Shown one piece after another: positions 1-62,959 of a stretch of 64,000 nucleotides of DNA; positions within the stretch are counted from its first letter, which is position 1, and the number at the start of each line of letters is the position of its first letter. The stretch comes from a virus. The position numbers and the translations under genes were made by a program. The notes under the pieces were generated by a model, which was not told the DNA's origin, did no database searches, and saw nothing but the letters and a program-made list of their open reading frames with translations. Where the stretch lies: the IMG/VR virus record IMGVR_UViG_3300030012_001696, positions 7,601 through 71,600 of that record. One strand, written 5' to 3'.

Positions 1-1109
1 GTTTTAAAAAATGGAACATTTTCTACAACGCTTTTTCTAAATTCTCCATCTTTCATCAAATTGTCAAATTGGTCTTTTTCCATAACAACTTGTTTAGTTT
101 TTGTTTGAGCTTGTACTAATTGCGCTTCTAGTAAAGCTTCTTGTTCAGCAATTTGAGATTGCATTTCTTTATACATTTTTTCTAGTTCTAGAACCATTCT
201 ATCTTCTAAAATTTTACCTTGTTCTACATCTGATTGTAAAGATAATTCTGTTTCTTTAATTTTTAACATCATTTCTTTTTTATATTCTTCAATAGATTCA
301 AATGTAGTTCTTTGTATATTTTTTACTTCTTGTTCAGACAAAGGTTGTTTTATCCAAGCGTTAACAAAAGGTATTTTTTCTTTTGTGTATACTTCGTAAA
401 AATCAAGTATATCATCTTGTTCTCCTTCTAAATTAAAAGCTTCTTGTTCTAAATCTCCTGGTTGAATACTATCTGATTCATGAATGTCTCTTCTAGAATA
501 TTGTTTACTTTCAGTACTTCCTGAAGCACGTACAATTTTACGTTTCATATCTGGAAACATTTGTATTAATGAAGTTTTTGGAATATTTTTTTGTACAATA
601 ATGTAATTAGCATCTCTAAATAAAAAATCTCTACTCATTGGGTCTACATATACATCATAAGGGTCTATAGATTTATATACTACTTCACCCATACCTTTAT
701 CAGCATCAGCATCTATTTCTATTTTAAAAAACCCTAAACCTTTTACTAAAGAATCTTGTATAACTTGTGAAAATAAACTTTTACCACTAGATAAATGCCA
801 ACAATAATCTGCAACCATACTATGAATATGTGCAATATCTGCATCACTACCTTCTACACCAACTGCTTGCCATCTAGGATTATTAGCTGTAATAAAAAAT
901 TTCATAATATCAATCGCTGGTGTAATACGATTAATAATAAAGTCTGGCATACCACCTTCTCTTAAATCTTCTTTTTCTTCTGCTGACAATTGGTCGTTTA
1001 GATAAAAATCCATACTTTTTTGAGAATCGCTAAACCATTTTTTTCTATAATAATTATTAGCTTTTTTAAAAAGTTGTCTATTTACTTCTGCTTTACTTTT
1101 ACGTGCCAT
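1..1109 (-). CDS. Portal protein A (P22-like), partial; runs off the window start
   Basis: Not in the ORF track. My translation from the ATG at 1109 (MARKSKAEVNRQLFKK...DADKGMGEVVYKSIDPYDVYVDPMSRDFLFRDA) aligns with portal 55910-57889 (DADYGRGEVKYTHVDPFRVYVDPASRDRFFNDA). It lies downstream of TerL. Confidence 0.85.
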   Translation of the reverse strand, partial: MARKSKAEVNRQLFKKANNYYRKKWFSDSQKSMDFYLNDQLSAEEKEDLREGGMPDFIINRITPAIDIMKFFITANNPRWQAVGVEGSDADIAHIHSMVADYCWHLSSGKSLFSQVIQDSLVKGLGFFKIEIDADADKGMGEVVYKSIDPYDVYVDPMSRDFLFRDANYIIVQKNIPKTSLIQMFPDMKRKIVRASGSTESKQYSRRDIHESDSIQPGDLEQEAFNLEGEQDDILDFYEVYTKEKIPFVNAWIKQPLSEQEVKNIQRTTFESIEEYKKEMMLKIKETELSLQSDVEQGKILEDRMVLELEKMYKEMQSQIAEQEALLEAQLVQAQTKTKQVVMEKDQFDNLMKDGEFRKSVVENVPFFK

Positions 1110-1110
1110 A

Positions 1111-1503
1111 TTAATCCCTTATTTCAAAATGTGGTAAATCATCAAAATTGTTATCTTTTAATTCAGTATCTCTATCCCAGTCTCCACCCCAACGTATAGT
1201 TAATCCCATTGAAGCGGCAATACCCATAACAAATCCAGCAAAGTATGTAAAGCGTTCTCTATCTTTCCAATCTATAGGATAAGGTGCTACATCTACAGCT
1301 AATGAAGGATATTGGTTATGTTTACCTTTAGGATATTTTAATTTGCTAAAACCTTTTTCAAACAATTCGTTTTGTTCTTTTTCTCCACGATGTCCTTGTA
1401 ATACCGAACAATCAAAATCTTCAACTACTCTTTCAAATAGTTCAATTAATCTTGGGTCGCAAGTATTTAATCTTTGTTGTGATTTTTTTCCAAATTTAGG
1501 CAT
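1111..1503 (-). CDS. Endolysin, M15 family L-Ala-D-Glu peptidase
   Basis: GHR..EQNELF, KH...SLAVD, IRWGGDW and DLPHFE motifs typical of T5/Ply500-like M15 peptidases. Confidence 0.9.
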   Translation of the reverse strand: MPKFGKKSQQRLNTCDPRLIELFERVVEDFDCSVLQGHRGEKEQNELFEKGFSKLKYPKGKHNQYPSLAVDVAPYPIDWKDRERFTYFAGFVMGIAASMGLTIRWGGDWDRDTELKDNNFDDLPHFEIRD

Positions 1504-1916
1504 TATTTTAATTTTAATAAGTGATTAAAAATTATATCTTTTGCTGATTTTGCTTTTTGACGCAACACTTCTGCGTTAGTAGGTGCATCAGGATATACTT
1601 CTCCATACTCTTCATCTGTTAAAGATGTAGGTTCAAACCATTTATCAAATAATTCTTTATTACCATCTAACAATAAATGATATGGAGCTTGTTCTTGTCT
1701 AGCTACATAAAGAATTTGTGCATGTGTATAATCATGTTTTTTTAATAAATTATATCTTTGTTCTGCTTTTCTAGTAGTTGAATCATAACCAATTGCTCCT
1801 TCAGAAATTTTAAAACCATTATCCATTAAAGTTTTTTTTAATTCATTTACTTGTTGTTCATTTTCATAAGGTCCTAATTGAACTGGTCTTTTATCTTGCA
1901 TCATGCTACTATCCAA
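1503..1916 (-). CDS. Hypothetical protein; N-terminus weakly resembles a peptidoglycan-binding module
   Basis: Translationally coupled between TerL and the endolysin; VNELKKTLMDNGF...GYDSTTRKA pattern. Confidence 0.5.
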   Translation of the reverse strand: MDSSMMQDKRPVQLGPYENEQQVNELKKTLMDNGFKISEGAIGYDSTTRKAEQRYNLLKKHDYTHAQILYVARQEQAPYHLLLDGNKELFDKWFEPTSLTDEEYGEVYPDAPTNAEVLRQKAKSAKDIIFNHLLKLK

Positions 1917-3472
1917 CTTTTTGCTTTACGTTTTGGTTTATACCATTTTGGTTTATCTGTTCCATTGTTTGCATAATTAGGCGGAAATGCGTGTAAATTT
2001 GCATAATAAAGTGCTTCAATTGTGTCATCATGCGCCATTCTTGGTCCGAAAGTTACAATTTCGTTAACCAAATCAAACATATTTTCCCTTAAATATAATG
2101 AACCTACAGAAAAAATGCCAGATAAACCTGAATAAATTCTGTTTCTTTTTTGTTGTCCACCTGGTTTTTCAGGTATTACAGCTATATCATAACGATTAAT
2201 TCTTCTTCTTTCATCATTTAATGCTTGAAGAATACTACGATTCATAGCAACATCTTCTACTGTAGCTTGTTTACAATTATATTTTTTATACAACTCAATA
2301 ATATAATCTACTACACCTTTTTTATCTATAATGTTTCCATCAACATCTTTTGCTCCTAATGTAGGAATACTACGATGACGTTCATATTCTAATACATAAC
2401 GATTATTATTTGCATCAACTGCAATTACCATAATTACACTAAAGTCTGCATTTTTTGTATTAATGTCTGTTGCTGGGTCGCATCCAATAAAAGTATTTAC
2501 AGGAGTTTGTACACCATCAATATTAATATATCCTTGACTTTCGCTTTCATTATAATCGTAATAACCTTCCCAATATTTTACGTGTTTTCTACCCCAAACT
2601 GAATCTTCTTCAGATTGTACTTCCATCATATATTCTTGATAAAATTTACTAGGCGTTCCACTATCTTGATAAAACTTTTTCTTTTCTTCTAATTTAGATA
2701 TAGGAAACCAACTATCCCATAATGACGTTCCATCTGGTTGAATTGCTTTATAAGTAATTACTCTCCACGCAAAATCATCTTTGCTTTTTTTACTACGTTC
2801 ATAATTAATGATGAGGTTATTGATAAAGCTATCATAGTGCACAGGAGTGCCATTGACCCGAAGACGACCAGTATGAGGCTCAATAGCAGGATAAACAACA
2901 GCAGTAACGAGATTGCTATTCTTAGCCCGTGCTTCAGCTGTAATAGTATTTGCTTCGTGTTCAAAGTCGTCAAGAATGATGAGGTCGTATCTTTTGTGTA
3001 ATTTAGCACCCCCTCTAATACCCGCAACATTCGATTTACTAATAAGTTTACATCCATTGGCTAACTCCACATCTTCTTCTGTCCATTTTTTTCCCTTCAA
3101 ACTACCAAAGTAGTATTTTATTTTTTCATTGTATTCAAAGTGGTACTTAATATAATCCATATTACCAGTACTTAATTTTTGTGTTGCTGATACCCAAGCG
3201 TAAAACAACATATCGTCTTTTGGACAAAAACAAAAATCTTTAATAATAGAACATTTAGTTAACACAGTTTTTCCGTGTCCTCTAGGTAAAATAACAGCTA
3301 ATTGTTTTACACTATTATCATCAATAGCATCAGCCATTTCGTAATGGAATGGAGGTGTTTCACTCCTCATGAAATCATCGGGAAGAAAAAGTTTACCAAA
3401 AGCTATTAAGTCTTTACTTGCTAGTTTTAGTGCTTTTTCTGCTTTGCTTACGTTGTTCTTGTTTATGTTCAT
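1901..3472 (-). CDS. terL: Terminase large subunit A
   Basis: Walker A LPRGHGKT, Walker B LIILDDFE, NGTP coupling motif, nuclease GCDPA...DFS and HDDTIEA. Confidence 0.95.
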   Translation of the reverse strand: MNINKNNVSKAEKALKLASKDLIAFGKLFLPDDFMRSETPPFHYEMADAIDDNSVKQLAVILPRGHGKTVLTKCSIIKDFCFCPKDDMLFYAWVSATQKLSTGNMDYIKYHFEYNEKIKYYFGSLKGKKWTEEDVELANGCKLISKSNVAGIRGGAKLHKRYDLIILDDFEHEANTITAEARAKNSNLVTAVVYPAIEPHTGRLRVNGTPVHYDSFINNLIINYERSKKSKDDFAWRVITYKAIQPDGTSLWDSWFPISKLEEKKKFYQDSGTPSKFYQEYMMEVQSEEDSVWGRKHVKYWEGYYDYNESESQGYINIDGVQTPVNTFIGCDPATDINTKNADFSVIMVIAVDANNNRYVLEYERHRSIPTLGAKDVDGNIIDKKGVVDYIIELYKKYNCKQATVEDVAMNRSILQALNDERRRINRYDIAVIPEKPGGQQKRNRIYSGLSGIFSVGSLYLRENMFDLVNEIVTFGPRMAHDDTIEALYYANLHAFPPNYANNGTDKPKWYKPKRKAKSWIVA

Positions 3473-3641
3473 TTTCCATGAACTCTACGAATTTGTCTTT
3501 GTCTTTTTTCATAACGATATATTTATCTAAAATATTATCTATCATTACAATATGTTGTTGAAGTTGCATAAGGTGTAGCTCTATGCCTTTTATAGCACGA
3601 ACCATATCGCCTTTAGTTACCCCTTTTCTTTGTATCGGCAT
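3414..3641 (-). CDS. Hypothetical protein
   Basis: ORF with AGGAG RBS within the operon. Confidence 0.6.
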   Translation of the reverse strand: MPIQRKGVTKGDMVRAIKGIELHLMQLQQHIVMIDNILDKYIVMKKDKDKFVEFMENEHKQEQRKQSRKSTKTSK

Positions 3642-3647
3642 AATCTC

Positions 3648-3914
3648 CTACCATTTAACTTTATTAGCCCAATAAGCTGCTGACATCTTACCTTTTTTAA
3701 TATTTTTTCTATGTCTAGCTTTAAACGATTTAGCTCTTTTAGTCATAGTTCTATCACCAGTTTTCCCTTGTTGACCAAATCTAATAGTTTTAATTTTACT
3801 ACCTTCTTTTGCTACAACAATGTGAGATTTTGTTTTGTGACTAGGAGTTCGTTTAGGTTTATTATAACCCGATACACCAGCTCGTTTGAGTCTTGGGTCT
3901 TTTTTTCTACTCAT
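3648..3914 (-). CDS. Small highly basic phage protein
   Basis: K/R-rich; IRFGQQG...SFKARH...SAAYWA pattern common in marine phages. Confidence 0.75.
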   Translation of the reverse strand: MSRKKDPRLKRAGVSGYNKPKRTPSHKTKSHIVVAKEGSKIKTIRFGQQGKTGDRTMTKRAKSFKARHRKNIKKGKMSAAYWANKVKW

Positions 3915-4051
3915 GTTCCTTGTCCTCTATAACGTTTTTTGTAATAGTTTTTACTACCTTTAGTTCCATATTTTGTTCTATGGCTTTGACCTTGTCTGGT
4001 TTTTTTCTTACCATTCGTGTGTCTTTTAACTTGTGGTCGTAAACCTCTCAT
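3911..4051 (-). CDS. 46-aa basic microprotein (MRGLRPQVKRHTNGKKKTRQG...KRYRGQGT)
   Basis: Below the ORF-track cutoff; overlapping start/stop coupling on both sides; clear homolog at 51943-52086. Confidence 0.8.
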   Translation of the reverse strand: MRGLRPQVKRHTNGKKKTRQGQSHRTKYGTKGSKNYYKKRYRGQGT

Positions 4052-4230
4052 CGTTTCTTTTTACGTTTTTTAGCAGTTTTAGCGGCTCTTTTGAAATTAG
4101 CTGCAGTAGGAGCGCCTTTGCTTCCAGGTTTTCTCATACGTTCTCCTGAACCTGCTTTAATACGTTTACGCTTTGCATGTATGTTAGCGTATAATCCTTT
4201 CTTTTTACTTTTTCTTTTTTTTACTGGCAC
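4048..4230 (-). CDS. Small basic protein (GLYANIHAKRKRIKAGSGE family)
   Basis: K/R-rich peptide of a type frequent in marine phages. Confidence 0.7.
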   Translation of the reverse strand: MPVKKRKSKKKGLYANIHAKRKRIKAGSGERMRKPGSKGAPTAANFKRAAKTAKKRKKKR

Positions 4231-4318
4231 GTTTCATACCTTTTTTTCTACCTGCAGCTTTTGCTTTTTTAGAGGGTCTACCTCTCTTACTTCCGTAAGT
4301 ACCTTTTCCATATGGCAT
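4205..4318 (-). CDS. 37-aa basic microprotein (MPYGKGTYGSKRGRPSKK...)
   Basis: GGAG RBS upstream; translated by eye; fills the gap in the operon. Confidence 0.65.
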   Translation of the reverse strand: MPYGKGTYGSKRGRPSKKAKAAGRKKGMKRASKKKKK

Positions 4319-4319
4319 T

Positions 4320-5207
4320 TTAATTCTCCCAACAGTTTATTTTATCTTTAGTAAATTCCATTGTTATCCACCCAGTTCGTTGTATTCCATAAAAAGAATA
4401 TCTTGCATAATCTGCGTAGCGTAAAAATGAACCTCCTCTAATATACCACTTTCTTTTTAAAGTTTCCAGACCTTCTTCATCAATAGTTAAAGAATCTATA
4501 GGTTTGCAATATAGTTGGTGATTATGTCCTAAGAAAAATACATCCCCATCACTATACACTGATGCCATTTTATCTAATTCAGTATCACCATTTTTAGCAC
4601 CACTTTTACCATGTCCACTAACCATGTACCAGTCTTTACCTTGTATTGTAATACGTGCATATCCAGGTAATCTATAGTAAGGAACACCCATTTCACTTGC
4701 TAATGTTTTGCAAATATCAAAGTCTAATATATTAAAACTTCGTAAATAATCATGATTACCACCACGAATAAACAAACATTTATCAGCAATTGGTTGTACC
4801 AATTTTAAAAATGCTAAGTATTGTTGTTCGGGTGTCATACATTGTCCACGTTGATTAATGTTATAGTTAGGCGGTATAAGTTCTATCATATCACCATTAC
4901 CAAACCATCGTGCATTTGGGTCTTCGTAAATAATTTTTATAGCTTCTTGGAACTTTTTTAAATCAAATTCGTTAGCACCTACGTGTACATCCGTTAATCC
5001 GTGCACTCTAAGTTTTTCATCGCTATCAACAGCAAATACTTTACCTGGTTCTATTTCTAATTTGTCATACTCTTTTACATCACTAGGTATAGGTATTGAA
5101 AACCATTTACCACACGATTTACAACTAAATTGTTGTTTGACAGTATCTTTATTTCGTTTCTTGCCCTCTTTTTTAGTGAGCATACTACTACAATGTGGAC
5201 AAATCAT
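4320..5207 (-). CDS. Calcineurin-like metallophosphoesterase with N-terminal zinc ribbon
   Basis: CPHC...CKSC; DVHVG, GNGD, GGNHD, HG and GHNH motifs. Confidence 0.85.
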   Translation of the reverse strand: MICPHCSSMLTKKEGKKRNKDTVKQQFSCKSCGKWFSIPIPSDVKEYDKLEIEPGKVFAVDSDEKLRVHGLTDVHVGANEFDLKKFQEAIKIIYEDPNARWFGNGDMIELIPPNYNINQRGQCMTPEQQYLAFLKLVQPIADKCLFIRGGNHDYLRSFNILDFDICKTLASEMGVPYYRLPGYARITIQGKDWYMVSGHGKSGAKNGDTELDKMASVYSDGDVFFLGHNHQLYCKPIDSLTIDEEGLETLKRKWYIRGGSFLRYADYARYSFYGIQRTGWITMEFTKDKINCWEN

Positions 5208-5983
5208 TAGTCCTCCTGTGTTGTTTCTGGTAATATTTTGCGTTGAGCACCTTCTATTTCATCAGGACTAAACCCTTGAAACAATCCTACTACACCTGTT
5301 TCTACTTTTTTAACTTGATTGCCTAACGTACCTATAGCTTTACCTAATTCTTTAATAGATTGTAATGCTATGTTTTGGTCTTCGCTAGTATCAGCTAGTT
5401 GTTTCAACGAACCTAATATGTATGCGTGGTCAATGCCTAGTTCTTTAGCTACTTCTTTAGAAGTTTTTTCTATTTCACTCATTACTCGCTCCTGTTTTAG
5501 TAATATTACTGCTTTTTTACGTGCAGTATTACGATTTTTTTCAGTAAACGCTTTCATATAAGCACTTACAGCATCCTTTCCAACTGCGACGCTAGTCGCA
5601 AAAATTTTTTCTTTATTGGTACACTTCGTGCGTTGTTTAACTCTTTTGTTTGTATTTTTAATTTTTTGTGAAAATGTGTATCTATTAGGGTGTTTGGCAA
5701 AATCGGTATCCATATATGTCTTTGCACTTCTTATAAATGTACCAACAACAGTTCTGACATAACCATCATTACTAGAATAGTTTTTGCTATCCTTCGGATG
5801 GTGCAGATTTTCAGATACTTTTAATAATTGTATTATGCGCCCATCATCGCTAAGTACCCAATCGCCCTCTCGCCCTTTTCTCCAATCTTTAACAAGAGGG
5901 GTCACTGGATAAGTTTCTCTAAATTCTTCAGTATTATCGTAAATGTAATGACGTACTCGTTTGATAACCTTACTTTGTGGCAT
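5207..5983 (-). CDS. Putative terminase small subunit A
   Basis: Upstream of TerL; C-terminal AYMKAF...A..LLK HTH-like segment; homolog of 60073-60828. Confidence 0.6.
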   Translation of the reverse strand: MPQSKVIKRVRHYIYDNTEEFRETYPVTPLVKDWRKGREGDWVLSDDGRIIQLLKVSENLHHPKDSKNYSSNDGYVRTVVGTFIRSAKTYMDTDFAKHPNRYTFSQKIKNTNKRVKQRTKCTNKEKIFATSVAVGKDAVSAYMKAFTEKNRNTARKKAVILLKQERVMSEIEKTSKEVAKELGIDHAYILGSLKQLADTSEDQNIALQSIKELGKAIGTLGNQVKKVETGVVGLFQGFSPDEIEGAQRKILPETTQED

Positions 5984-6278
5984 TCTTTTTTTCTAGTTGT
6001 TTATGTAATGATTCAATCAAAAACATTACTTGTTTTGGTATAAAATACTTTGTTCCGTTGATTTCTATAGGTACACTACTAGTTCCCTCGTCTGCATCCA
6101 TATCGTCTATTTCATTTAGTACATAACCTTCTTCTTCTATTTCAGATATAAGTATTTTTTCTAGCTTTACAAGCTTTTGTATATGTTCAAGTATTTTAAC
6201 TTGCTCTTTATACGGCAACTTGCCTAGCCATTTTATTGCTATTCCCATTGATTTTCCTTGACAAACTTTAGAAAACAC
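5970..6278 (-). CDS. Hypothetical protein (true start probably MGIAIKW, ~6248)
   Basis: ORF in the operon. Confidence 0.55.
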   Translation of the reverse strand: MFSKVCQGKSMGIAIKWLGKLPYKEQVKILEHIQKLVKLEKILISEIEEEGYVLNEIDDMDADEGTSSVPIEINGTKYFIPKQVMFLIESLHKQLEKKNATK

Positions 6279-6335
6279 CTTATTTTTAAGCTACCAAGTA
6301 GCTACTAAACAGATAACTAAGTTATATAACTAGTT

Positions 6336-6518
6336 CTATTTCTTTTTCTTTGGTACTTTCTTTTTCTTTAACTCGGCAGCTGCTCGTTCTTTTTCAGCTA
6401 AAATATCTAAGACAGCTTCTTCAAGCATCTCTTGTTCTCTTTGTTCAGCTAATTCAGCTTCTCGTCTAGCTACACCAGTTAAACCAGTCTTTTCTAAGTC
6501 TTTAGTTGTATACGTCAT
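6336..6518 (-). CDS. Hypothetical protein, possibly leaderless
   Basis: ATG lies 5 nt downstream of a putative -10 (TAAGTT) with no SD sequence. Confidence 0.5.
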   Translation of the reverse strand: MTYTTKDLEKTGLTGVARREAELAEQREQEMLEEAVLDILAEKERAAAELKKKKVPKKKK

Positions 6519-6523
6519 AATAT

Positions 6524-6552
6524 AACTTATGTATAACCCATGTTATTTCCAA
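6524..6552 (-). promoter_or_regulatory. Putative sigma70-type promoter for packaging operon A (TTGGAA-17-TAAGTT)
   Basis: Read on the minus strand; the same TAAGTT -10 is seen upstream of operon B (~62532). Confidence 0.4.
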
Positions 6553-6635
6553 GAAAAAATATAGCATTTTGAAATGGACCTATATACACACACCCTACCC
6601 CCCTTCGGTGGGTTTCGGTTTTTGTAGTTTACGTT

Positions 6636-6944
6636 ATGAGTGAAAATATATCTCAAGACCTAGTAAATGATGTGCCTAGTGAAGTAAAAGAACTTGTTAA
6701 TGACTTAACAAAGAAGTACTTTGCGAATGCTCAGCAGATTACTAAGATGCAAGCTATGGGTGTTAGAACCAAGATTCAACCATGGCAATTATCAAGTCAG
6801 TTCAAAGCAGACATTCAATTAGTTACTCAAGAACTTACTCGTTTCTACATGACACCTCAGCGTGTTAATGACAATGAGTCAAGACTGAGCACTCTTGAAA
6901 GTAAGCTAGACTCACTGATAGATGCATTGAAGCCGCCTAAATAA
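6636..6944 (+). CDS. Hypothetical early protein
   Basis: First ORF of the divergent plus-strand arm; C-terminal coiled coil. Confidence 0.6.
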   Translation: MSENISQDLVNDVPSEVKELVNDLTKKYFANAQQITKMQAMGVRTKIQPWQLSSQFKADIQLVTQELTRFYMTPQRVNDNESRLSTLESKLDSLIDALKPPK

Positions 6945-7147
6945 GCGGAGGTCCCAAGTTTTAGGGTTGTACTTGGTTAATCAACAGCCCTAACCTATCT
7001 AACTCTCTACTCTTTGAAGTTATAGTTACTTAGGTTTTTAGAATTATCTACTATTAATATTAACATATGGCAGTAGATTGTGAGTAGAGGGACCATAATA
7101 GTCGTATTATCGGAGGAGAGGTAATACCCGCATATATATACACATTA

Positions 7148-7167
7148 TGTGGATAACATGGGGATAA
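7148..7167. promoter_or_regulatory. Tandem DnaA boxes (TGTGGATAA, TGGGGATAA)
   Basis: Reverse complement TTATCCACA (perfect) and TTATCCCCA (one mismatch), 11 bp apart, after a TATATATA run. Confidence 0.55.
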
Positions 7168-7190
7168 ACATAAATCCTCTTTAAAGAGCT

Positions 7191-7276
7191 TCTGTAATAA
7201 CTATCACGACGTCGTAGCTTACCGAAAGGTTGAAGCGGTCAATATAGTTAGAATACGGCTATTATAGACATATTCT
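7191..7276 (+). ncRNA. Compact pseudoknotted structured RNA candidate
   Basis: Pairings: 7191-99/7260-68, 7200-04/7244-48, GCTT-ACC-GAAA-GGT-TG-AAGC hairpin, and crossing pair GTCGTA 7211-16/TACGGC 7254-59. Confidence 0.5.
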
Positions 7277-7309
7277 GAATAAACATATAACTATGAAATG
7301 GAGTGAACT

Positions 7310-7483
7310 ATGACTAAAGAAGTAATAAAAGAAATTGGTAATGTATTAACTAGTGGTTATCTTAACAATAATAAAGTGTTTACTATCTTATCTTTATTAG
7401 TGGCGAATGGTGACGCTAATGCGGATATGAACATGGAGGAAATTGATAGAGTCCTTCGTGAGCATTTTACTATCAAAAACTAA
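7310..7483 (+). CDS. 57-aa hypothetical early protein
   Basis: GGAGTG RBS; MTKEVIKEIGNV... translated by eye. Confidence 0.6.
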   Translation: MTKEVIKEIGNVLTSGYLNNNKVFTILSLLVANGDANADMNMEEIDRVLREHFTIKN

Positions 7484-7588
7484 ATTATGAGGGAGTAGGT
7501 AGAGCGACTAAGCAATCATTATATATACCATTAGTTAGTTCACTTCTCCTACTTCCTTATATTAATCTATAACTTACATGGAGGTCCT

Positions 7589-7741
7589 ATGTATATTAGA
7601 TTAGAAAAGTCCTTTAATGACTATCTTAGGATAAGTTATGAAGGCAATGGTATGTGGTATTATCGTTGGAATGGTCTAGTTCCAAATGATAATGTTGATA
7701 CCTGGACTATGATTGATGTAGTCCTAGCCTTTCTTAAATGA
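7589..7741 (+). CDS. 50-aa hypothetical early protein
   Basis: GGAGG RBS; MYIRLEKSFND... translated by eye. Confidence 0.6.
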   Translation: MYIRLEKSFNDYLRISYEGNGMWYYRWNGLVPNDNVDTWTMIDVVLAFLK

Positions 7742-7749
7742 AGGGCTTT

Positions 7750-8570
7750 AGAAAAAGTTTTCGTTTACTCAACGATGTCTAGAGTCGGGTGTATATGCTC
7801 GTTACATAAAACTCAGAAATGAGTATAAAGTCAGAAATGGCGACATTATCTTCGGATAGTGTTTATGTATAAAATTGGAATATCAATTATGGCGTACAGA
7901 TTCTCTCCTCGGTGAAAGCCAGGGTTTATCTAGATGTAATTGACTAGCACGATAGGGGTGTTAGTTGAGTTGGAAACAGCAATAAGAAAATCCAAAAGAT
8001 AATGAGTTAAGTGTCGTTGCGGTACTTGTTATCAGTCAGCATAGGTGAATGTCGTAGAAATACACAATCATCGTAGCTAGGACTACTTAAAACTCTAGAT
8101 AACGACTAGAGACGGTAGGAAGTACTTATACTATTCACTTCTCAAAAGGAAGTGAGGTATATAATTTTGTGCGGTACTTTCACATGACCCTTACTTTGCT
8201 ATAATATACAAACGTATTAACGTAAAAACTAATATCAAGCATATATAACAAAAGGAAAAGTCACAAAACGTTTTAAATCAAAAATGTTCTTGTTGTTGTC
8301 TGAAATACGATAGCTTCTAGTTGCCCCCAAAGCGCTAGAAAATTGACAAACAGCCAAGTTGGTCTAATTAACCATTAGTTGGAGCGGTAGCTTCGGATTG
8401 AGCTTAGTAGTCGGTTAACAGATTAAAACGATAAGAGTGATTAGCTATACTAATTGAACATGACATCGCAGTATGTAGGCAACTATAACTGGATAAAAGA
8501 CTTAAGGGTAGAAATCCGTACGGGTCTCAAGGAGATGTTGGTAAAGGTGTAATCTCAACCTTTGCAATAC
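7750..8570 (+). ncRNA. Large structured non-coding RNA (~820 nt), GOLLD-like in size and style
   Basis: No ORF of 60 aa or more. Many GAAA/UUCG hairpins (7811-24, 7830-41, 7843-62, 7911-20, 7969-80), a multibranch junction closed by 7803-10/7862-69, a stem at 8135-55 and a terminal stem-loop AAAGGT-GTAATCTCA-ACCTTT. Confidence 0.7.
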
Positions 8571-8837
8571 TTACTCAAAGAATTATTTGATGGTATATTA
8601 ATGTGTTGATTTCCCAAAGTATATTTTATACGTTAATATCTACAACATTTGTTAGTGATTGTAGTGTTTTTCGTATTTAACTGAGCAATAGCAAAAAAGC
8701 AGACGGATAGAAACGGCAACAGTTATTATATCTGGATAATGGAAGTGAGGTGATGAGCCGCATTCTAATCACATAAATACTAATGTAGGTTGAGCGTTGT
8801 AGTAAATACAGCGCAATACACCCTTTAAAGAAAGAAG

Positions 8838-9365
8838 GTGAACATGAAAGATTTATTAGCGCCATTTATACAAAGTGGTAGTCAAGGGTATGATACAGCA
8901 TTGAACTCTATGGCTTGGTGTAGAAGAACTAAAGATAAACATGGTAAAACATATTATATGGTAAAGTTTAGCGATAAATATTTATATCATATAACTCTTA
9001 ATGATTACTATGAAGATGCAATGAAAAAGTTTCACATTATGTGGGATGATACTATAATAGTAACAGATGAAGTTAAAGAATATAGAAAACATTATAAAAA
9101 TATACATACTATTCCACGTTATCAAATGTGGAGATTAGATAATAAAAAGTATACAAAAGTATCTTCCTTAAATTTACATGAAGACCAAAATGGTAGACCT
9201 TACTATTTTATACCAAAAACTAAAGTTATTCCATTTAAAACTGATATGAGATTTGTGCTGAAGAAAAATTATTATATATTTCATCAAGATATAAATAAAG
9301 ATGGAACTTTGAAAAATAAAGCGAGATTATGGTTTCCAGTGAAGCCATGGGCGTTTCAACCTTAA
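8838..9365 (+). CDS. Hypothetical protein
   Basis: 175-aa ORF immediately downstream of the RNA-rich region. Confidence 0.7.
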   Translation: MNMKDLLAPFIQSGSQGYDTALNSMAWCRRTKDKHGKTYYMVKFSDKYLYHITLNDYYEDAMKKFHIMWDDTIIVTDEVKEYRKHYKNIHTIPRYQMWRLDNKKYTKVSSLNLHEDQNGRPYYFIPKTKVIPFKTDMRFVLKKNYYIFHQDINKDGTLKNKARLWFPVKPWAFQP

Positions 9366-9374
9366 GGAGTGAAC

Positions 9375-9548
9375 ATGAAAGATACACCTAAACCTTATCA
9401 AGAATACTATTTAAGGATTCAAGATACGGACAACAGAAAAAGTAAAGCAGTATTATCAGCATACGCAAAGTATAGACGTGAAACATTACTTGGTCGTATT
9501 GCAGATAGATTTGATAGATTAATCGATATAATAAGTAAGAGGAGCTAA
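9375..9548 (+). CDS. 57-aa hypothetical protein
   Basis: AAGGAG RBS; MKDTPKPYQEYY... translated by eye. Confidence 0.6.
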   Translation: MKDTPKPYQEYYLRIQDTDNRKSKAVLSAYAKYRRETLLGRIADRFDRLIDIISKRS

Positions 9549-9550
9549 AC

Positions 9551-10419: not shown

Positions 10420-10540
10420 TATCACCGTATCACCATTGGATACATACACTAAGAAGGAAGGGTTTCGTTTATTGTTTTCCTATTTATGATTTTGCAATCA
10501 ACAATACTCTTTTATCCTTCCTTTTTAGCCTGAATAGGTA

Positions 10541-10569: not shown

Positions 10570-10583
10570 CTTGAGGAGGATTC

Positions 10584-55094: not shown

Positions 55095-55859
55095 TTAGTT
55101 TTTAGCTATTCTACCGATTCTTCCAGCATTCATAACTCTATCCCACACTTGGTCTTCTTCAGATTTCTGTGGTTGTTGACCACCTTGAAGAACACCTGCA
55201 GGTTTAGGAATTGATTTAGCTTTTTGTACAGCTTCTAAGTTTTCAGTTTTTTTCTCTACTTTGCCTTCTCCTTCTTTCCACACTTTAATAAGAGTTTCAA
55301 TAGGTAGGTTAGCTTTTGGAGTTGTTGCAAACTGTAAAAACTTTTCTGCATCATCCGCACCTAAGTTGTGCTTACTTACCAATTCTGTTTTTAAATTATT
55401 CATAGCCATCTGATTTTGTAGTTTAGCTAGTTCGTTATCTACTGTTTCATGTACAAGCTTTTTCTCTTGACTTACTCTAAATTTGTAAGATTCTGAGTCA
55501 GGCTTGTAATAGGCGTCCCAAGGGTCAAAATTATCTGGAGTTGTACTCTCAGATTCTGTTGACTCAATAGATTCTCCAGCAAGGCTTTTTTCAATTACAT
55601 TTACTAATTCAGGCTTTTCAGATAACACTTGTCTTAATTGTAGTAAGTCATTGCTGTCTTTCTTTAAGTTTTCGTGTTCTGCTACCTTTTTGTCGTACAT
55701 GGATTGAAACTTTTTAGCTTCTCCTTCCCAATTAACTTCTTCAGATGCTTCCACACCTTCTTCTGTTTGAGGTTCCATTGAAATAGTAGGCTCATTTCCA
55801 ACTCCCTCAACTATTGGGTCTTGCTGTTCAACCTGTTGTTTTTCTTGTTCTGTTGCCAT
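55095..55859 (-). CDS. Putative scaffolding protein
   Basis: Acidic N-terminus and coiled coil; lies between portal and MCP. Confidence 0.7.
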   Translation of the reverse strand: MATEQEKQQVEQQDPIVEGVGNEPTISMEPQTEEGVEASEEVNWEGEAKKFQSMYDKKVAEHENLKKDSNDLLQLRQVLSEKPELVNVIEKSLAGESIESTESESTTPDNFDPWDAYYKPDSESYKFRVSQEKKLVHETVDNELAKLQNQMAMNNLKTELVSKHNLGADDAEKFLQFATTPKANLPIETLIKVWKEGEGKVEKKTENLEAVQKAKSIPKPAGVLQGGQQPQKSEEDQVWDRVMNAGRIGRIAKN

Positions 55860-55909: not shown

Positions 55910-57889
55910 TTATTCTTCTTCCTCCAAAGATTGTCCCATTTGGTCTACCATAATGCCTAATTGCATCACCTTTTCTTTTTCTTTAGCTTTCGTAGAGCTT
56001 GTAATTTCACTCAATTGTGATTTAAACTTTTCAACCTCTGTACGTTTTCTAGCAGAAACCTGCTCACGTTCAGATGTTTGTAAATCACCACTTAGCTTTT
56101 TAACTTGATTTTCAAGCGATGTGATATACTGTTGCATTTGAGCCATCTGTCCTTTTCTTTGAAGAACACCTTCTTTGTCAAAGATTTCAGTTTTCTTTAA
56201 AACCTCGACATCATCTACCAGTCCAAGTTTATACGCATCAAGATACATGTTGTATTCAGATACCTTGTTGCTAGGCAAAGTTGAACCTGATATAATGCGA
56301 ATATCATGTTGACCTAGTTGAATATCATTCTCTATAGTTAACAATTCAGTTCGCTTATCATCGTACAATCTCATATTAACTGAAAATTCAGTAATATCGT
56401 TGTTTGGTTGTACAATTCTAAATGTTTTTGCAAATCTATAATGGTCTTTAGCTAGATTATAAACTACCTGACCTACCATTGATAAACTTGCTTCAATATC
56501 TCTTAATTTTGATTTACCTCTAGATTCTCCCATTTCTGACAAAAGCATAGTGCCTCTAACAGATTCTGGTGCATTATCTTTAAAACCTTGTAATAATTCT
56601 GGTATACCAAAATTTAAATCTATGTATTTTTCTACTCTGTCAATTAAATAATAAAACTCGCTCGTTAAAGGAGCAGGTTGTGGGTAATGAGGTTCTCCAA
56701 ACTCTGGATTATATTCAATCACAGCATTCGGGTTAGCCCAATCTTTTTCTAATTGACTTACACTGTCTACACTTCCCTCTGGTATTAAAAGTTTTAAACC
56801 AGCAGCAGATTGAGCGTGTGACAAGGTCAAAGAGAATAACTTGTTTAAAAGTCTCTGAGAGTCCTTAACCTTGTTCACATCTGACTTTGGATAGGGAGTA
56901 TTTGTCCAAATGTTCGTGAATGGAACAATTGGATAGATATCAGTGTTTAATATACGCTCATAAAGTAATGTGTCTCCAATGCTACTGCATTGTGCAATTC
57001 TTGTTTGTTGTATTTCTTCTACTTGTATAGCCCCAGATTCTATAGCTCTTTCTGTTTCTTCTTCTTGTATAACCTGAAGATAAATTTCAGGGTCAACTAT
57101 TTTCTCAGCGCCAGTTAAAGTGTTAAATAATCTATAGTAAGGAACTCTTACTTTATAAAATCTATCAAGTATTTGATACTTTTGATTTACATTATAGTCT
57201 AAATCTTTTGCTTCAGCAGGAGTCAAAACATTGTTACTGTTTTTTAAATTAGATGAAGGATAGTCTTCTCCGTACAAAGAATTTACTCCTACTTCTATAT
57301 CATCAATCATTTCTTCTAACTGAGGATATAAATCTAAAACTTGCTGTTTGGTTAAAAAAGTAGACAATATCATTCCTGACGCATCATTAAAAAATCTATC
57401 TCTAGATGCTGGGTCTACATATACTCTAAAAGGGTCTACGTGTGTATACTTTACCTCACCTCTACCATAATCTGCATCAGGGTCAACATATACATACATA
57501 TATCCCAGTCCAGTAACAGCATAATCGTGTACTACCTGTTTAAAAGTACTATCACCGTTTGAAATATCCCATACATACTCTAATATAGTTCTCCAAACGT
57601 TTGCTAATTTATTGTCAGAATCTTCTCTTGCAATTACAGAAAACCTCGCTGGTCTAGCTGTAAGTAAAGATTTTAATTTATCAACAGCTGCATATACTCT
57701 GTCAATAACAAAATCAGCCTGCCCTACTGCTTGTAAAGCATCTGATTCGTCGTTACTATAATGATTTCCTAAAGTAAAATCTACTGCATTTCTTGCTTCA
57801 GCGTCCCACTGCTCTCTAGCGTCTCTCCAACGCCTAAAGAGTTCTTTAGATATTTGTGGTTTGCTTTTATTATCGTCGTAGTTTGCCAT
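55910..57889 (-). CDS. Portal protein B (P22-like)
   Basis: 659 aa after TerL; G.G..V..D, VDPFRVYVDP, YPIVPF and V...KDSQR..NK. Confidence 0.9.
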   Translation of the reverse strand: MANYDDNKSKPQISKELFRRWRDAREQWDAEARNAVDFTLGNHYSNDESDALQAVGQADFVIDRVYAAVDKLKSLLTARPARFSVIAREDSDNKLANVWRTILEYVWDISNGDSTFKQVVHDYAVTGLGYMYVYVDPDADYGRGEVKYTHVDPFRVYVDPASRDRFFNDASGMILSTFLTKQQVLDLYPQLEEMIDDIEVGVNSLYGEDYPSSNLKNSNNVLTPAEAKDLDYNVNQKYQILDRFYKVRVPYYRLFNTLTGAEKIVDPEIYLQVIQEEETERAIESGAIQVEEIQQTRIAQCSSIGDTLLYERILNTDIYPIVPFTNIWTNTPYPKSDVNKVKDSQRLLNKLFSLTLSHAQSAAGLKLLIPEGSVDSVSQLEKDWANPNAVIEYNPEFGEPHYPQPAPLTSEFYYLIDRVEKYIDLNFGIPELLQGFKDNAPESVRGTMLLSEMGESRGKSKLRDIEASLSMVGQVVYNLAKDHYRFAKTFRIVQPNNDITEFSVNMRLYDDKRTELLTIENDIQLGQHDIRIISGSTLPSNKVSEYNMYLDAYKLGLVDDVEVLKKTEIFDKEGVLQRKGQMAQMQQYITSLENQVKKLSGDLQTSEREQVSARKRTEVEKFKSQLSEITSSTKAKEKEKVMQLGIMVDQMGQSLEEEE

Positions 57890-57953: not shown

Positions 57954-59540
57954 TTATATTTTTTGTCCAGTAATCCAACTTACTGCTCTAGATGTAACGC
58001 TTTTCTCCTTATTTAACATTCTTTCTTCGAATTTATCTCTATCTACAGCGTTACTTTTTGGAGGCTTTGCTGTTGTTACAGCATACCATAAGCCATCAAG
58101 AAGGTCGTCGTTTCTTCCTTTTGGAAACTCATACATTTCATCTACTATTTCTTGATGTTCTTTTTTGATATAAAGCTTTCTACCGTTTACAATAGGACAT
58201 AGTAGTGCTTCTAGTCTGTCTTCTTTTTTGATACCACCAGGCGGTCTAACACCCTGAGACAATCCAGGTGCTAGCTTTCTATCTTTACCTGCTAACTTAT
58301 TAACATGGTCTTTAATCAATCCTTGTGCTCCAACTTTTTCTACATTAACTCTTCTAACTGGGTGATATTTTCTAGCAATGTCTATAATTTGTTTTGGCAT
58401 ATCATATAAAGGAGAATGTTCTCTATAGTAATCAATTAAATATATATTTCTTTCACTATCTATTCCGATAGTTACAATTACTTGATAGTCGCTTTTTGCA
58501 TTTGCTTCATAAGCTAAGTCTACTCCCATATATACATTTACTGGTATAGCAGCCTCATCTATCATCATATAATTAAAACCATTTCTATTTTCCAAGTATC
58601 CTCTATAGTTATGTATTCTATCTATTAAGAACTTAGCATTTTCTACATCTCTTGCTTCATTTAAATATTCTTGTGCAAATTTATGAACAAGACCCATGTC
58701 TGTGAATCTGCTTTTAATATCAAGAAGTTTTTCTTTTGTAAAATAATTTGGCCATAAAGGTATTCCATCTAATATGGCCTTCTTATACATAACAGCCCAG
58801 GCTGATTTTCTATCATCTTTCTGAGCGTCTAACCAGCCGTCGTAAACTCCCTGAAGGAATGAATCGTAATGGACTATTGTACCAATAAGCCATATGGAAC
58901 CTTCGTTTTCTTTGGAGTTTTCTAGAGCGGGTTCTACTGTGGACATTACCCATTCTTTAATTTCCTTTCTTCTATCTGGTGTTTTTGTATTTAACTCTGA
59001 CTCAAAGTCATCAAGTATAATATTAGTATAACGTAATCCCAACTGCGAACGTCCACGCAATCTTTGAGATGTACCTTTTGCAATAATTCTATCTCCTCTA
59101 GCTGTAGTAAATTCTTTTTCTGTCCATTTACTACCTTTTAAGTCACCAAAATAATATTGTAAAGCAGGATTCATATCAATATGGTTTTGTATATATTTAA
59201 TATGGTCAATAGCCTGTGACTGTTCTTCAGATACCCAAGCAATAAATTGTTTTTTCTCTGGAGGTGCAAAATACAACTGATACAACAATGCCGTTTTTGC
59301 AAGAGTTGATTTAGCATGACCTCTAGGCAATATAATGCAGACTCTTTTTTCATCGCCTAGTAACAGGTCACTTAGCTCGTATTGGTATGGAGCAGGGCTA
59401 GATTTCATAAAATCTTCTGGTAAAAACATTTGACCAAAAGTTATTATGTCTTTTCTAGCTAACTCTAATGCTTTTTCTTTCTGATTTAAATCAGGAGGTA
59501 TAATATTAAATTGCTGGGGTTTGTTCGAATTTTTTTTCAT
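57954..59540 (-). CDS. terL: Terminase large subunit B
   Basis: LPRGHAKST, IILDDFE, IGTIVH, GVDLA...SDY and FPKGRNDDLLD. Confidence 0.95.
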   Translation of the reverse strand: MKKNSNKPQQFNIIPPDLNQKEKALELARKDIITFGQMFLPEDFMKSSPAPYQYELSDLLLGDEKRVCIILPRGHAKSTLAKTALLYQLYFAPPEKKQFIAWVSEEQSQAIDHIKYIQNHIDMNPALQYYFGDLKGSKWTEKEFTTARGDRIIAKGTSQRLRGRSQLGLRYTNIILDDFESELNTKTPDRRKEIKEWVMSTVEPALENSKENEGSIWLIGTIVHYDSFLQGVYDGWLDAQKDDRKSAWAVMYKKAILDGIPLWPNYFTKEKLLDIKSRFTDMGLVHKFAQEYLNEARDVENAKFLIDRIHNYRGYLENRNGFNYMMIDEAAIPVNVYMGVDLAYEANAKSDYQVIVTIGIDSERNIYLIDYYREHSPLYDMPKQIIDIARKYHPVRRVNVEKVGAQGLIKDHVNKLAGKDRKLAPGLSQGVRPPGGIKKEDRLEALLCPIVNGRKLYIKKEHQEIVDEMYEFPKGRNDDLLDGLWYAVTTAKPPKSNAVDRDKFEERMLNKEKSVTSRAVSWITGQKI

Positions 59541-59910
59541 ATACCCTATCTAGCATAATTAATGTTTTCATAGAATGCCAATCTCCATCTGGCACTTCTG
59601 TAAAAGTTTTAGACTTTTCCCACAACTTAGGTCCAGCTACATAAATCCAAGCTTTTTCAGTATCTCCGTTATATAGTTCTACATTTACTGTCGTTCTAAT
59701 GTATAAACCGCCATCAACGTTTTCATATTCGTCATACATATTAAGTTCTTCATCAGTTACGTCTATAAGCTCTACAACAGCTCCTTTACCTTTTTCATTC
59801 TTAATAATAGCAGGAAATGATTGTGTTCCAGGGAATACCAAGCTAAAACCTTCTATTTTACCTTTATCTGGATAATCTCTTCTTAATGTTCCATATACAG
59901 CTAATCTCAT
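59506..59910 (-). CDS. Gamma-glutamylcyclotransferase (AIG2-like)
   Basis: AVYGTLR, D.YE....LY.R and AWIY. Confidence 0.85.
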   Translation of the reverse strand: MRLAVYGTLRRDYPDKGKIEGFSLVFPGTQSFPAIIKNEKGKGAVVELIDVTDEELNMYDEYENVDGGLYIRTTVNVELYNGDTEKAWIYVAGPKLWEKSKTFTEVPDGDWHSMKTLIMLDRVYEKKFEQTPAI

Positions 59911-60134
59911 GAATATCCTACCTCTCTTACTATACCTAAGTCTGTTATTTCAAAATCAGTATCATACATAGTCAAACAGTTAATACATTTTAATCTATTT
60001 GTATCTTTTGTTTTGATATCCCAAATATATACTGCAGTTTTTCTTAAATGGTATGAACAGATGTGACAGCGCTTACTTCTCGCGTGTGACTTTAACTTCT
60101 TCCAGTTTTTTGACTTCTTTCCCTTGAATTGCAT
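59907..60134 (-). CDS. Small zinc-finger-like protein
   Basis: CHIC...CINC; coupled to the GGCT gene. Confidence 0.5.
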   Translation of the reverse strand: MQFKGKKSKNWKKLKSHARSKRCHICSYHLRKTAVYIWDIKTKDTNRLKCINCLTMYDTDFEITDLGIVREVGYS

Positions 60135-60828
60135 TTAGTTGCTCCTTCGTAAATCCTTGGAACAATGTTACAGATTCTGTTTGTTTTTCTGTATCCATCA
60201 TACCAGAAAGTTTCATTAATGTTGTTATAGCAGTAAGTTTATCTCTATCAGATGTACCGCCTTTATCTATTATATCACGCATTTCTTCTAATAGATATAA
60301 AGGTGTAATCTCTGCTTCTGCTAAATATTTATCTATTTCTTCTCTAATCAATTTTTTCACCCTATCAGTTTTTAATAATAGTTTTGCTTGTGACTTAGCA
60401 TAATCTTCTTTTTTACTAGGAAAAGCTTTCATATATGCTTCAACCACATCATCTCCTTTTGCTACGTACTTGCTAAACAAAAATTCTTTTTCTGTTGCGT
60501 GTTTACGTTCTTTCTTTCTAACAGAAGGAGATTTACCTTCAGTTGAAAAGGTGTGCATGTTTGTTCTCATTGGGCCATCCATATTAACTTTGTCGGAGCA
60601 TATAAAAGAACCTATGATAGTTCTTATAAACGTGGTTTCTTTTTTAGATTTTTTAAGAATACCTAAATGTAAAACCTGACAAACGTTTCCGTCATCCGTT
60701 AAAACCCAATCACCTGTATTTGAGTGTCTCCAATCAGTGACTAAAGAAACATCACTATGATGTTCTCTAAACTCAGATTCACTCTCGTAAAGGTAATGTG
60801 TCACACCTTTAACAACTCTTTCTAACAT
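60073..60828 (-). CDS. Putative terminase small subunit B
   Basis: Homolog of 5207-5983 (DWR....GDWVL.DDG, RT..G.FI, AYMKAF, LFQGF). Confidence 0.6.
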   Translation of the reverse strand: MLERVVKGVTHYLYESESEFREHHSDVSLVTDWRHSNTGDWVLTDDGNVCQVLHLGILKKSKKETTFIRTIIGSFICSDKVNMDGPMRTNMHTFSTEGKSPSVRKKERKHATEKEFLFSKYVAKGDDVVEAYMKAFPSKKEDYAKSQAKLLLKTDRVKKLIREEIDKYLAEAEITPLYLLEEMRDIIDKGGTSDRDKLTAITTLMKLSGMMDTEKQTESVTLFQGFTKEQLNAIQGKEVKKLEEVKVTREK

Positions 60829-62197: not shown

Positions 62198-62469
62198 AGA
62201 TAATCTCCTATTCCCAGTTGAAATAAACCATTACTTATAGCTTCTATCTGCCTTTCATCGTGTTCTAAGCCAGTATTGTAGAAAATGGCGTGTAAAACCT
62301 CATGAATTAGTGTTTCTTGCATTCTAGATGCTGCTATTTCATCGTTTATGTAAATAATATTCTCTTTTACTTCGTGTCTACCGTATAATTCTTTACGTGG
62401 GTTTTCGTGTTTTAACTCGTCAACCAGTATTTCATACGTATGTCCACCTATATTTAGTTTTCTTATCAT
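62170..62469 (-). CDS. Small HEXXH zinc metallopeptidase-like protein
   Basis: ETLIHEVLHAI. Confidence 0.75.
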   Translation of the reverse strand: MIRKLNIGGHTYEILVDELKHENPRKELYGRHEVKENIIYINDEIAASRMQETLIHEVLHAIFYNTGLEHDERQIEAISNGLFQLGIGDYLWKKSEKQS

Positions 62470-62645
62470 TTTTACCCTCCCAGTCGGTAAATGTGTACAT
62501 AAAATCTAGTACGTTTGTCTTTTGTGTATGCAACTTACATTCATTTTCTTACAGCAGTCAAGTAAATAATACAAATAAATAAAAATAAATCTTTAACAGA
62601 AGGTAAGAAATATCTTGACAACAAAATTTTTTTCTTTGTACCTTC

Positions 62646-62711
62646 TAATACTCGGTGCTCTTATAAAAATATATTTATTAAATCATTTTCTTAAATAATA
62701 CTCGGTGCTCT
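62646..62711. repeat. 16-bp direct repeat TAATACTCGGTGCTCT x2 (50-bp period)
   Basis: Copies at 62646-62661 and 62696-62711. Confidence 0.85.
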
Positions 62712-62959
62712 AGAGACCCTCTTTCAAAAAATAAACCGCCGAAATTTTTCTAAACACAAAAAAAACATAATATTAACAAAAAAACATCAAACCGCCGCAC
62801 TTGGTTGAAAAAATGCCCAAGATTGTGTGTCTTTCTTTTTTCGTCATTAGGGGTCGGGTCTTTTTCTAATTAGAAATTCTATAATTACGTTGAAAATTTG
62901 GATTTCGTTAAATAATCTTTTTTCTTGACTTTTTCAAAAAGTCTTTTTAACGTCTTAAC

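Follow-up and report, generated by a model that had tools for sequence, protein, structure and literature searches.

How a single viral contig comes to carry two diverged sets of head and packaging genes is the question raised by IMG/VR record IMGVR_UViG_3300030012_001696. The record is 71,600 bp in length, contains no ambiguous bases (N count of 0), and is listed in IMG/VR with a 'linear' topology and a CheckV completeness of 100%. We analyzed a window of 64,000 nucleotides (nt) corresponding to record bases 7601–71600 (window position plus 7600 gives record position; coordinates below are those of the window unless marked 'record'). Genes were compared pairwise by blastp, both within the window and across the whole record, and were assigned to families using PHROGs and using Pfam with curated cut-offs. 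A first-pass annotation had offered three origins for the doubled gene set: an assembly chimera of two co-occurring phages, a natural recombinant or cointegrate, and a true dual-packaging genome. The first of these is the best supported. We place a probability of roughly 85% on the record being a chimeric metagenome contig of two uncultured marine phages, termed A and B below, which would have been joined within a shared tail-fibre gene.

The record carries two full head/packaging sets, each consisting of a TerS-like gene, a TerL gene, a portal, a scaffold and an SU10-type capsid protein, with 27–37% protein identity between set A and set B. Within the window, blastp aligned TerL A (523 amino acids (aa), 1901–3472) with TerL B (528 aa, 57954–59540) at 34% identity over 518 aa (E 3e-90), TerS-like A (258 aa, 5207–5983) with TerS-like B (251 aa, 60073–60828) at 37% over 247 aa (E 9e-43), and the C-terminal part of portal A that lies in the window (3–1109) with portal B (659 aa, 55910–57889) at 32% over 250 aa (E 1e-42). 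Over their full lengths the two portals are 32–36% identical in the whole-record comparison. All of these genes are on the minus strand. PHROGs assigned both members of each pair to the same family: TerL to phrog_38 (E 3e-75 for A and 9e-75 for B), the portals to phrog_156 (6e-51 and 7e-63), the TerS-like proteins to phrog_51 (4e-8 and 2e-10) and the capsid proteins to phrog_1328. In Pfam both portals are P22_portal proteins (E 2e-49 for portal B) and both capsid proteins match SU10_MCP (PF17236) above its cut-off of 24.1 bits, with 63.5 bits for capsid A and 94.2 bits (E 1e-26) for capsid B; Terminase_2 scored under its cut-off of 26.1 bits in both TerS-like proteins (23.1 bits in A and 25.8 bits in B). 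The TerL, TerS-like and portal pairs named in the first-pass annotation are therefore genes at those positions and true homologs, diverged throughout.

Set A continues to the left of the window with the full portal gene (739 aa, record 6490–8709, minus strand), a scaffold-like gene, capsid A (record 4026–5570) and seven further late genes. Since the scaffold and capsid are present there, set A is a full head module, and the earlier supposition that phage A lacked a capsid falls away; the search for a second major capsid protein beyond portal A, which the same annotation had proposed, finds it in capsid A. In set B, capsid B (456 aa) lies at 53707–55077 and a scaffold-like gene (254 aa), named from its position, at 55095–55859, both on the minus strand. 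In the whole-record comparison the capsids are 36% and the scaffolds 27% identical. Both sets consist of complete, intact open reading frames (ORFs) in the same orientation, and the ORF map places a divergent strand switch beside each, at 6519–6635 (A late genes on the minus strand, A early genes on the plus strand) and at 62470–62959 (B late and B early genes), 56 kb apart as had been described.

We conclude that both packaging sets are genuine and that they come from two different phages. The 27–37% protein identity of the copies rules out terminal redundancy or a single-genome concatemer, in agreement with the first-pass annotation; matches of the record's DNA to itself are short, comprising 77 exact nt and 708 nt at 89% identity. 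That the two sets lie on one molecule, as had also been stated, is true of the contig only.

Relatives were gathered by a pattern search for each TerL, in which 594 of 599 matches were confirmed for TerL A and 172 of 174 for TerL B. The best 80 loci were used in each case, and their TerL proteins are 72–98% identical to TerL A and 69–100% identical to TerL B; the longest contigs among the best 80 loci per TerL measure 59,842 bp and 56,880 bp. Four A-type contigs (L008, L006, L007 and L071) track the record at 89–98% nt identity and span the first strand switch colinearly at 94–98%. Because L008 is colinear with record 2632–21,000 across that switch, the early genes beyond the switch belong with the A head module.

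The A-type contig G001 (52,946 bp, with a TerL 97% identical in aa to TerL A) is colinear gene by gene with the record from record position 305 to approximately 51.4 kb and holds a single head set. The order common to both is head A, early genes, tail module, a split nozzle-like gene pair, a small cassette, an 81-aa gene and the tail fibre; G001 then closes the circle, with its fibre adjoining 272-aa, 135-aa and other small genes next to capsid A. The early and replication genes of the record (6636–20076, plus strand) are mostly 78–99% identical in aa to those of G001 and encode a PD-(D/E)XK/Cas4-like nuclease, a Sak annealing protein, a DUF932 protein, a Dam methyltransferase, a Holliday junction resolvase and, at 18117–19460 (plus strand), a DnaB helicase. 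The tail module (20054–37872, minus strand) encodes proteins of 927, 2901, 470, 168, 438 and 99 aa followed by the split nozzle-like pair; G001 has the same order and sizes (992, 2925, 472, 171, 210, 95, 405 and 519 aa), at 21–58% aa identity for those pairs with any match. None of the A tail module proteins matched a Pfam or PHROG family, and no match in either collection names any window protein as a tail tube, two of which had been proposed. A more distant A-type contig, G002 (59,842 bp), also carries a single set and is closed by a 99-nt exact terminal overlap. The GC content of the A part is 31.8%, compared to 31.75% for G001. At the left end of the record, positions 386 to 3 (minus strand) encode the first 128 aa of an A-type fibre that is cut by the contig end. 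Taken from this gene order, record 1–52,346 very probably represents one complete turn of an A-type genome, circular or circularly permuted, that was opened in its tail-fibre gene.

Two observations concern local divergence within this otherwise colinear part. Portal A is only 70% identical in aa to the G001 portal although neighboring genes are 93–100% identical, a pattern that could reflect recombination in nature at this place or, alternatively, a mixture of strains in one of the two assemblies. The 927-aa and 2901-aa late proteins (20054–31533) are 21–26% identical to their positional counterparts in G001, with flanking early genes at 92–98%; judged by this contrast, the segment is a hypervariable block of putative tail or ejection proteins.

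The remainder of the record follows a different lineage. TerL B is 100% identical in aa in three contigs (L084–L086), and L084 (96%), L086 (97%) and L085 (98% nt) track the record from, at the furthest, 56.7 kb to its right end. The second strand switch is colinear in L084, L086 and L087, which extend approximately 5.5 kb beyond the right end of the record, and record 53.06–71.6 kb is colinear with B-type L183/G006, L084 and L086. The closest relative, G006, is 83–97% identical in aa. From right to left, this part comprises the first kilobase of B early genes (62960–64000, plus strand, cut by the contig end, with a 113-aa ORF 79% identical in aa to G006), the B head and packaging genes, three genes of 150 aa (a weak SU10_adaptor match), 113 aa and 607 aa (49327–51943, minus strand, 88–90% aa to G006) and a fused nozzle-like gene (nozzle-like B, 709 aa, 45843–47972, minus strand, 93% aa to G006). 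In the B-type contigs G006, G008 and G009 the order is head B, 607-aa gene, 113-aa gene, small genes, nozzle-like B, fibre and 81-aa gene, followed by tail genes of their own that comprise ORFs of roughly 100–640 aa and one of roughly 1520–1590 aa. The A and B gene orders given by the first-pass annotation agree with these relatives.

The tail and replication genes of B-type phages are absent from the record. None of the seven post-fibre ORFs of G006 (106–1535 aa) has a blastp match anywhere in it, and the DnaB homolog found among the B-type early genes of G005, G008 and G009 (38–39% aa to the A DnaB) is likewise missing, the record's single DnaB being A-type. The record therefore consists of a complete A genome plus a 19-kb B fragment. 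The GC content of the B part is 34.8%, and that of B relatives 33.7–34.6%. The comparison of composition that had been proposed thus comes out in the expected direction, with each part matching the relatives of its own lineage, and we regard it as weak evidence; tetranucleotide windows split cleanly into A and B, but each window contributes to the mean against which it is compared.

The B-type contigs are complete phages of 46–50 kb with their own tail and replication genes, which bears on a possible satellite origin of the second set. The cf-PICI-like satellites are capsid-forming elements with their own capsid and packaging genes, and the record resembles them in having a second head/packaging set beside a full phage genome. 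Such a satellite would form a lineage of its own without tail or replication genes and would be integrated in a host or helper; unlike this, the B lineage has tail genes in G006, G008 and G009 and DnaB in G005, G008 and G009, and the record contains neither an integrase nor a host flank. A satellite or tandem prophage was rejected because the record contains no host DNA and because full phages make up the B relatives.

The two strand switches also bear on a natural recombinant of unit length, in which a B head would be combined with A tail and early genes over the 56 kb between the switches (approximately 6.6–62.5 kb), and the A head at the left would be an assembly add-on. Between the switches there is indeed one set of each function (A early genes, A tail, fibre, and B nozzle, head and terminase), but such a genome would require that the second switch lead into A early genes, and the right end of the record is B-type early sequence at 79% aa identity to G006. 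The first switch, moreover, joins A early genes to the A head exactly as in the four A-type relatives (94–98% nt), and the unit would hold two nozzle-like genes and two cassettes. We therefore regard this as very unlikely. A related arrangement, a 56-kb unit between the switches with overlapping flanks, was rejected since the right end (B early genes) is dissimilar to the region after the first switch; it is also contradicted by the A relatives that link the A head to A early genes.

The two parts meet in the tail fibre, an intact ORF of 1815 aa (40396–45843, minus strand) with a C-terminal Peptidase_S74 domain (E 6e-15), within the interval of approximately 39–46 kb in which the first-pass annotation had placed a crossover. 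The first ~127 codons of this gene, together with nozzle-like B, are 89% identical in nt to B-type L183, beyond which similarity becomes patchy; the gene is a mosaic of a B-type N-terminal anchor and a distal part common to several lineages. Within it, at or near the junction, lies the longest exact repeat in the record: record 1–77 is an exact copy of record 52347–52423 (window 44747–44823). The similarity extends somewhat further, record 1–153 being 90% identical to record 52347–52502 (window 44747–44902), with 77 exact nt, the next 76 at approximately 84%, and no similarity thereafter. Closure of the circle at the 77-nt repeat gives a period of 52,346 bp, compared to 51,532 bp for G001, relative to which the record contains a 1.07-kb insertion (a Hint-like gene, described below).

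Beyond the anchor, segments of the fibre are shared between lineages. Residues 776–1600 are 92–95% identical in aa to stretches of G023, a scaffold of a third lineage whose capsid is 37% identical to capsid B and 32% to capsid A; fibre stretches of A-type G024 match at 74–80% aa and patches of the G001 fibre at 62–78% aa; and G027, whose 34-kb genome has terminal repeats but lacks a homolog of either the A or the B capsid, carries an A-like anchor and fibre segments at 78–86% nt. The 19 loci that are the closest relatives of the distal fibre are all mosaic, and none spans the whole fibre; as a consequence, the breakpoint can be placed only within the fibre, at or distal to 44747–44823. Two contigs carrying nozzle-like B, namely L183 (from G006) and L186, extend beyond the fibre; past the 81-aa gene neither is similar to the A tail, and the ORFs of G006 beyond that point are B-type tail genes. 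A megablast search of 38000–49500 against INPHARED found no cultured relatives. Judged from these comparisons, fibre modules are exchanged naturally between lineages, and such exchange creates shared k-mers that an assembler can cross.

The most likely explanation for the record's anatomy is the following. Record bases 52,424–71,600 would represent a B-type fragment that contains the N-terminal anchor of the fibre, the nozzle-like gene, the head/packaging genes and 1 kb of early genes. If the A-fibre and B-fibre paths met at a common 77-mer in a de Bruijn graph, an assembly path entering from B could cross that 77-mer into the distal fibre, circle the A genome once, and halt on meeting the same 77-mer again. 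We infer here that the join was the work of the assembler and not of biology, and that A is the source of the distal fibre. In keeping with a chimera, each block of the contig is colinear with its own single-lineage genome, the two source genomes have in common the sequence in which the junction lies, and the contig ends on an exact repeat of k-mer size (77 nt, record 1/52347).

The same signature is found in G001, at an unrelated place. The right-terminal 77 nt of that contig are identical to its own bases 1329–1405 (repeat 1329/52870), next to the capsid gene, and before reaching the exact 77-mer the right end retraces a diverged copy of its own left end over 1.4 kb at approximately 80% identity. 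The recurrence of a 77-nt terminal repeat at unrelated loci in the two contigs is what would be expected of an assembler k-mer and not of biology, and two contigs that each end on an internal 77-mer point to de Bruijn assembly at k = 77. A k value of 77 is standard in SPAdes. G001, an IMG/VR record given as 99% complete (L174–L176), overruns its circle closure, bases 1–1405 and 51533–52946 being only 76% identical, and G008 and G005 have similar overruns at approximately 75–76% identity. Over-extended contigs thus seem to be common in this phage group.

Chimeric contigs have been described as common in Illumina short-read virome assemblies (PMC4247695) and reported as frequent in Illumina viromes (PMC3901335). 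The record resembles chimeric and over-extended contigs of that kind in combining a full genome turn with a foreign fragment, in its join within shared sequence, and in its terminal copy of an internal 77-mer; it differs in that its sources are not strain variants but lineages with 27–37% identical head proteins, bridged by a horizontally shared fibre. It also resembles contigs with circular terminal overlaps, such as the 99 nt of G002, in that an exact terminal repeat of k-mer size marks the closure of a circle. In contrast to those contigs, its terminal 77-mer is paired with an internal copy (record 52347), and the closure is followed by another 19 kb that are foreign; the 'linear' call in IMG/VR follows from the partner not being at the other end.

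Several points weigh against an assembly chimera. The join is known from the sequence of the contig alone. What the 77-nt repeat at the terminus reveals is a branch in the graph, and a true molecule containing the 77-mer twice would leave the same signature. A 40-mer from the repeat had no exact match in viral_contigs and metagenome_contigs, a search from which the record itself may have been excluded; the repeat was thus seen in no other contig, and no independent contig shows the A circle closing at high identity. Homologous recombination in nature would likewise leave the hybrid fibre ORF intact, as it is here. Finally, two further contigs, G018 (71,658 bp, two TerL genes) and G005 (56,880 bp, two capsid types), also carry A- and B-type head genes joined through the fibre, such that the record, G018 and G005 might together represent overlapping stretches of an A-B-A-B order. 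In G018 there is no exact repeat of at least 25 nt, and the fibre at its left end cannot be shown to be the one that it carries internally.

These two contigs are mirror images of the record. In both, the join runs from an A head through an A-type fibre anchor, distal fibre and 81-aa gene into a B-type tail. G018 corresponds to approximately one B genome length (its fibre starts are 48.4 kb apart) plus 20 kb of A, a 'one turn plus fragment' reading that is drawn from gene order, given the absence of an exact repeat of at least 25 nt. G005 comprises one B turn with a period of approximately 46.4 kb and a B head set; its right end consists of A-like late genes, ending in an A-like capsid gene that is truncated, and at its left end the sequence passes again into the B tail, in a variant 76% identical to its own. 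G018 is interrupted at 30148–30157 and 55985–55994 (L307–L310) by runs of exactly 10 N, which also occur at three sites in G023 (L311) and at one in G024 (L312); these are probably scaffold gaps, which would make the three records scaffolds and not contigs, or alternatively masked stretches. The A and B parts of G018 and G005 are other variants than those of the record (74–90% nt), and the B part of G018 is ordered differently from the record's. Homologous contigs had been named in the first-pass annotation as the observation that would speak against an artefact. The two-set architecture with the record's junction was found in none of the relatives examined, and what G005 and G018 contain is the reciprocal join between different variants.

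Three contigs that link A and B head genes, always in the fibre gene, are what might be sampled (as pieces of 57–72 kb) from a natural A::B cointegrate or hetero-concatemer of approximately 100 kb, formed by recombination in the shared fibre segment during co-infection. The join of the record (B anchor to A tail) and that of G018 and G005 (A anchor to B tail) would be the two reciprocal outcomes of one crossover; natural exchange of fibre segments between lineages is plain to see, and the hybrid fibre ORF is intact. The other fibre copy of G005, however, runs from a B anchor into a 76% variant of the B tail, which does not fit a simple A::B dimer, and the different A and B variants (74–90% nt), along with the different order of B in G018, would require three independent events. 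The closest A and B relatives (G001 and G006) are single-set, relatives measure 46–60 kb with one closed by terminal repeats, and a molecule of 100 kb is probably too large for the head. In addition, G001 shows a 77-nt terminal signature of this kind at a locus unrelated to the fibre, and G018 contains two 10-N runs. On this balance we consider a natural cointegrate unlikely, and it appears similarly improbable that lineages with head proteins approximately 35% identical would recurrently form natural double genomes with two packaging machines.

Long relatives argue against a true phage lineage with a genome of at least 72 kb and two working head/packaging modules. We tallied second TerL or capsid genes in 18 relative contigs of 37.9–71.7 kb (G001–G005, G008–G018, G022 and G026), using a TerL search, a capsid search or full ORF tables depending on the contig, and 16 of them carry a single head set, including G002 (59.8 kb, with terminal repeats). 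Both sets in the record are complete, with intact ORFs in the same orientation, its CheckV completeness is 100%, and G018, of nearly equal length, also has two TerL genes, all of which speaks for such a lineage. A CheckV value of 100%, however, means only that the contig reaches or exceeds the expected length; G018 has the mirrored arrangement (a full B length plus an A fragment) and so has another architecture; and the record joins a full A genome to a B fragment that lacks the B tail and B helicase, and ends inside an A fibre gene that is cut short, where its internal 77-mer is copied exactly. A dual-packaging genome is thus without support, and we regard it as extremely unlikely.

Several genes near the junction occur in both lineages. 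The nozzle-like gene of the A part is split (392 aa, 35135–36313, and 519 aa, 36313–37872, both on the minus strand), and nozzle-like B is 30% identical to the 392-aa protein and 26% identical to the 519-aa protein. The duplication of a nozzle gene that had been reported therefore stands as a pair of homologs (26–30%) to which no Pfam or PHROG match gives a family name. Across relatives the gene is split in the A lineage (519 and 392 aa; also in G001 and G024) and fused in the B lineage (709–844 aa) and in G002 (939 aa). A split nozzle has been described for Pseudomonas podophage A1002 (PMC13730344); the likeness, of two genes (519 and 392 aa) in the A lineage to one (709 aa) in the B lineage, is one of analogy only.

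The duplicated small cassette was likewise located, at 38077–38784 in the A copy and 48625–49330 in the B copy (both minus strand). The copies are 89% identical over 708 nt although the head proteins of the two parts are approximately 35% identical, and the cassette is also found in G001 and in B relatives at 72–87% nt. Each copy contains a 127-aa minus-strand ORF (38076–38459 and 48624–49007), accompanied in the A copy by a second small ORF; the cassette ORFs have no Pfam or PHROG family. Adjoining the nozzle-like genes as it does, the cassette is, on its sequence conservation, either a recently exchanged or a strongly conserved module. Between the A cassette and the fibre lie two further minus-strand genes. 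The first (356 aa, 39041–40111) scored under the cut-offs for both PT-HINT (24.5 bits) and AXH (30.4 bits), is absent from G001, and is represented in B-type G009 by a 37% homolog that comes after the fibre; from its appearance it is a candidate mobile Hint-domain gene. The second, the 81-aa gene (40158–40403), follows the fibre in both lineages and is 56% identical in aa to its counterpart in G001, 77% to that in G006 and 59% to both copies in G005.

Further small features lie within the late genes. A stretch of approximately 145 nt is common to A (3918–4060) and B (51950–52092) at 73% identity, and its A copy adjoins a small opposite-strand ORF (4091–4351). Homologs of that ORF, of approximately 204 aa, are found at the equivalent B position in B-type G006 and G009, and B-type L102 matches approximately 400 nt of the A region at 76%; the ORF probably represents a small gene that lies in antisense orientation within the late operon. 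An endolysin-like gene (130 aa, 1111–1503, minus strand; phrog_465, E 1.5e-36) lies between TerL A and portal A. Between TerS-like B and TerL B, at 59506–59910, is a GGACT (gamma-glutamyl cyclotransferase-like, 58 bits) gene that is kept in B relatives at 71–92% aa. Scans of the 64-kb window for tRNA genes and Rfam families gave no match.

Both lineages share features with the SU10-like (Kuravirus-type) module, in that both capsid proteins match SU10_MCP above its cut-off and both portals are P22-like; a paper on SU10 (PMC9509320) provides the background to the 'nozzle' naming. SU10_adaptor reaches 21.5 bits (cut-off 27) in one B protein, and the nozzle-like proteins match no Pfam or PHROG family. 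Among cultured phages in our INPHARED copy, the closest relatives are at most 25% identical in TerL A, 27% in TerL B and 31% in capsid B, and none of them offers a reference for genome size. We do not claim membership in Kuravirus.

If the record is a chimera, then a public entry rated 100% complete consists of one genome and part of another, and statistics on gene content, genome size and host range that draw on it or on G005, G018 and G001 would be wrong. Such records may be flagged by a terminus that is an exact copy of an internal k-mer together with more than one TerL, portal or capsid gene. Should the molecule instead be real, it would be a rare phage genome with two diverged packaging/head modules. 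The sharing of the fibre carries a meaning of its own for these phages: tail-fibre segments that are nearly identical move among at least three lineages of uncultured marine phages whose head genes differ greatly, a sign that those lineages may share hosts.

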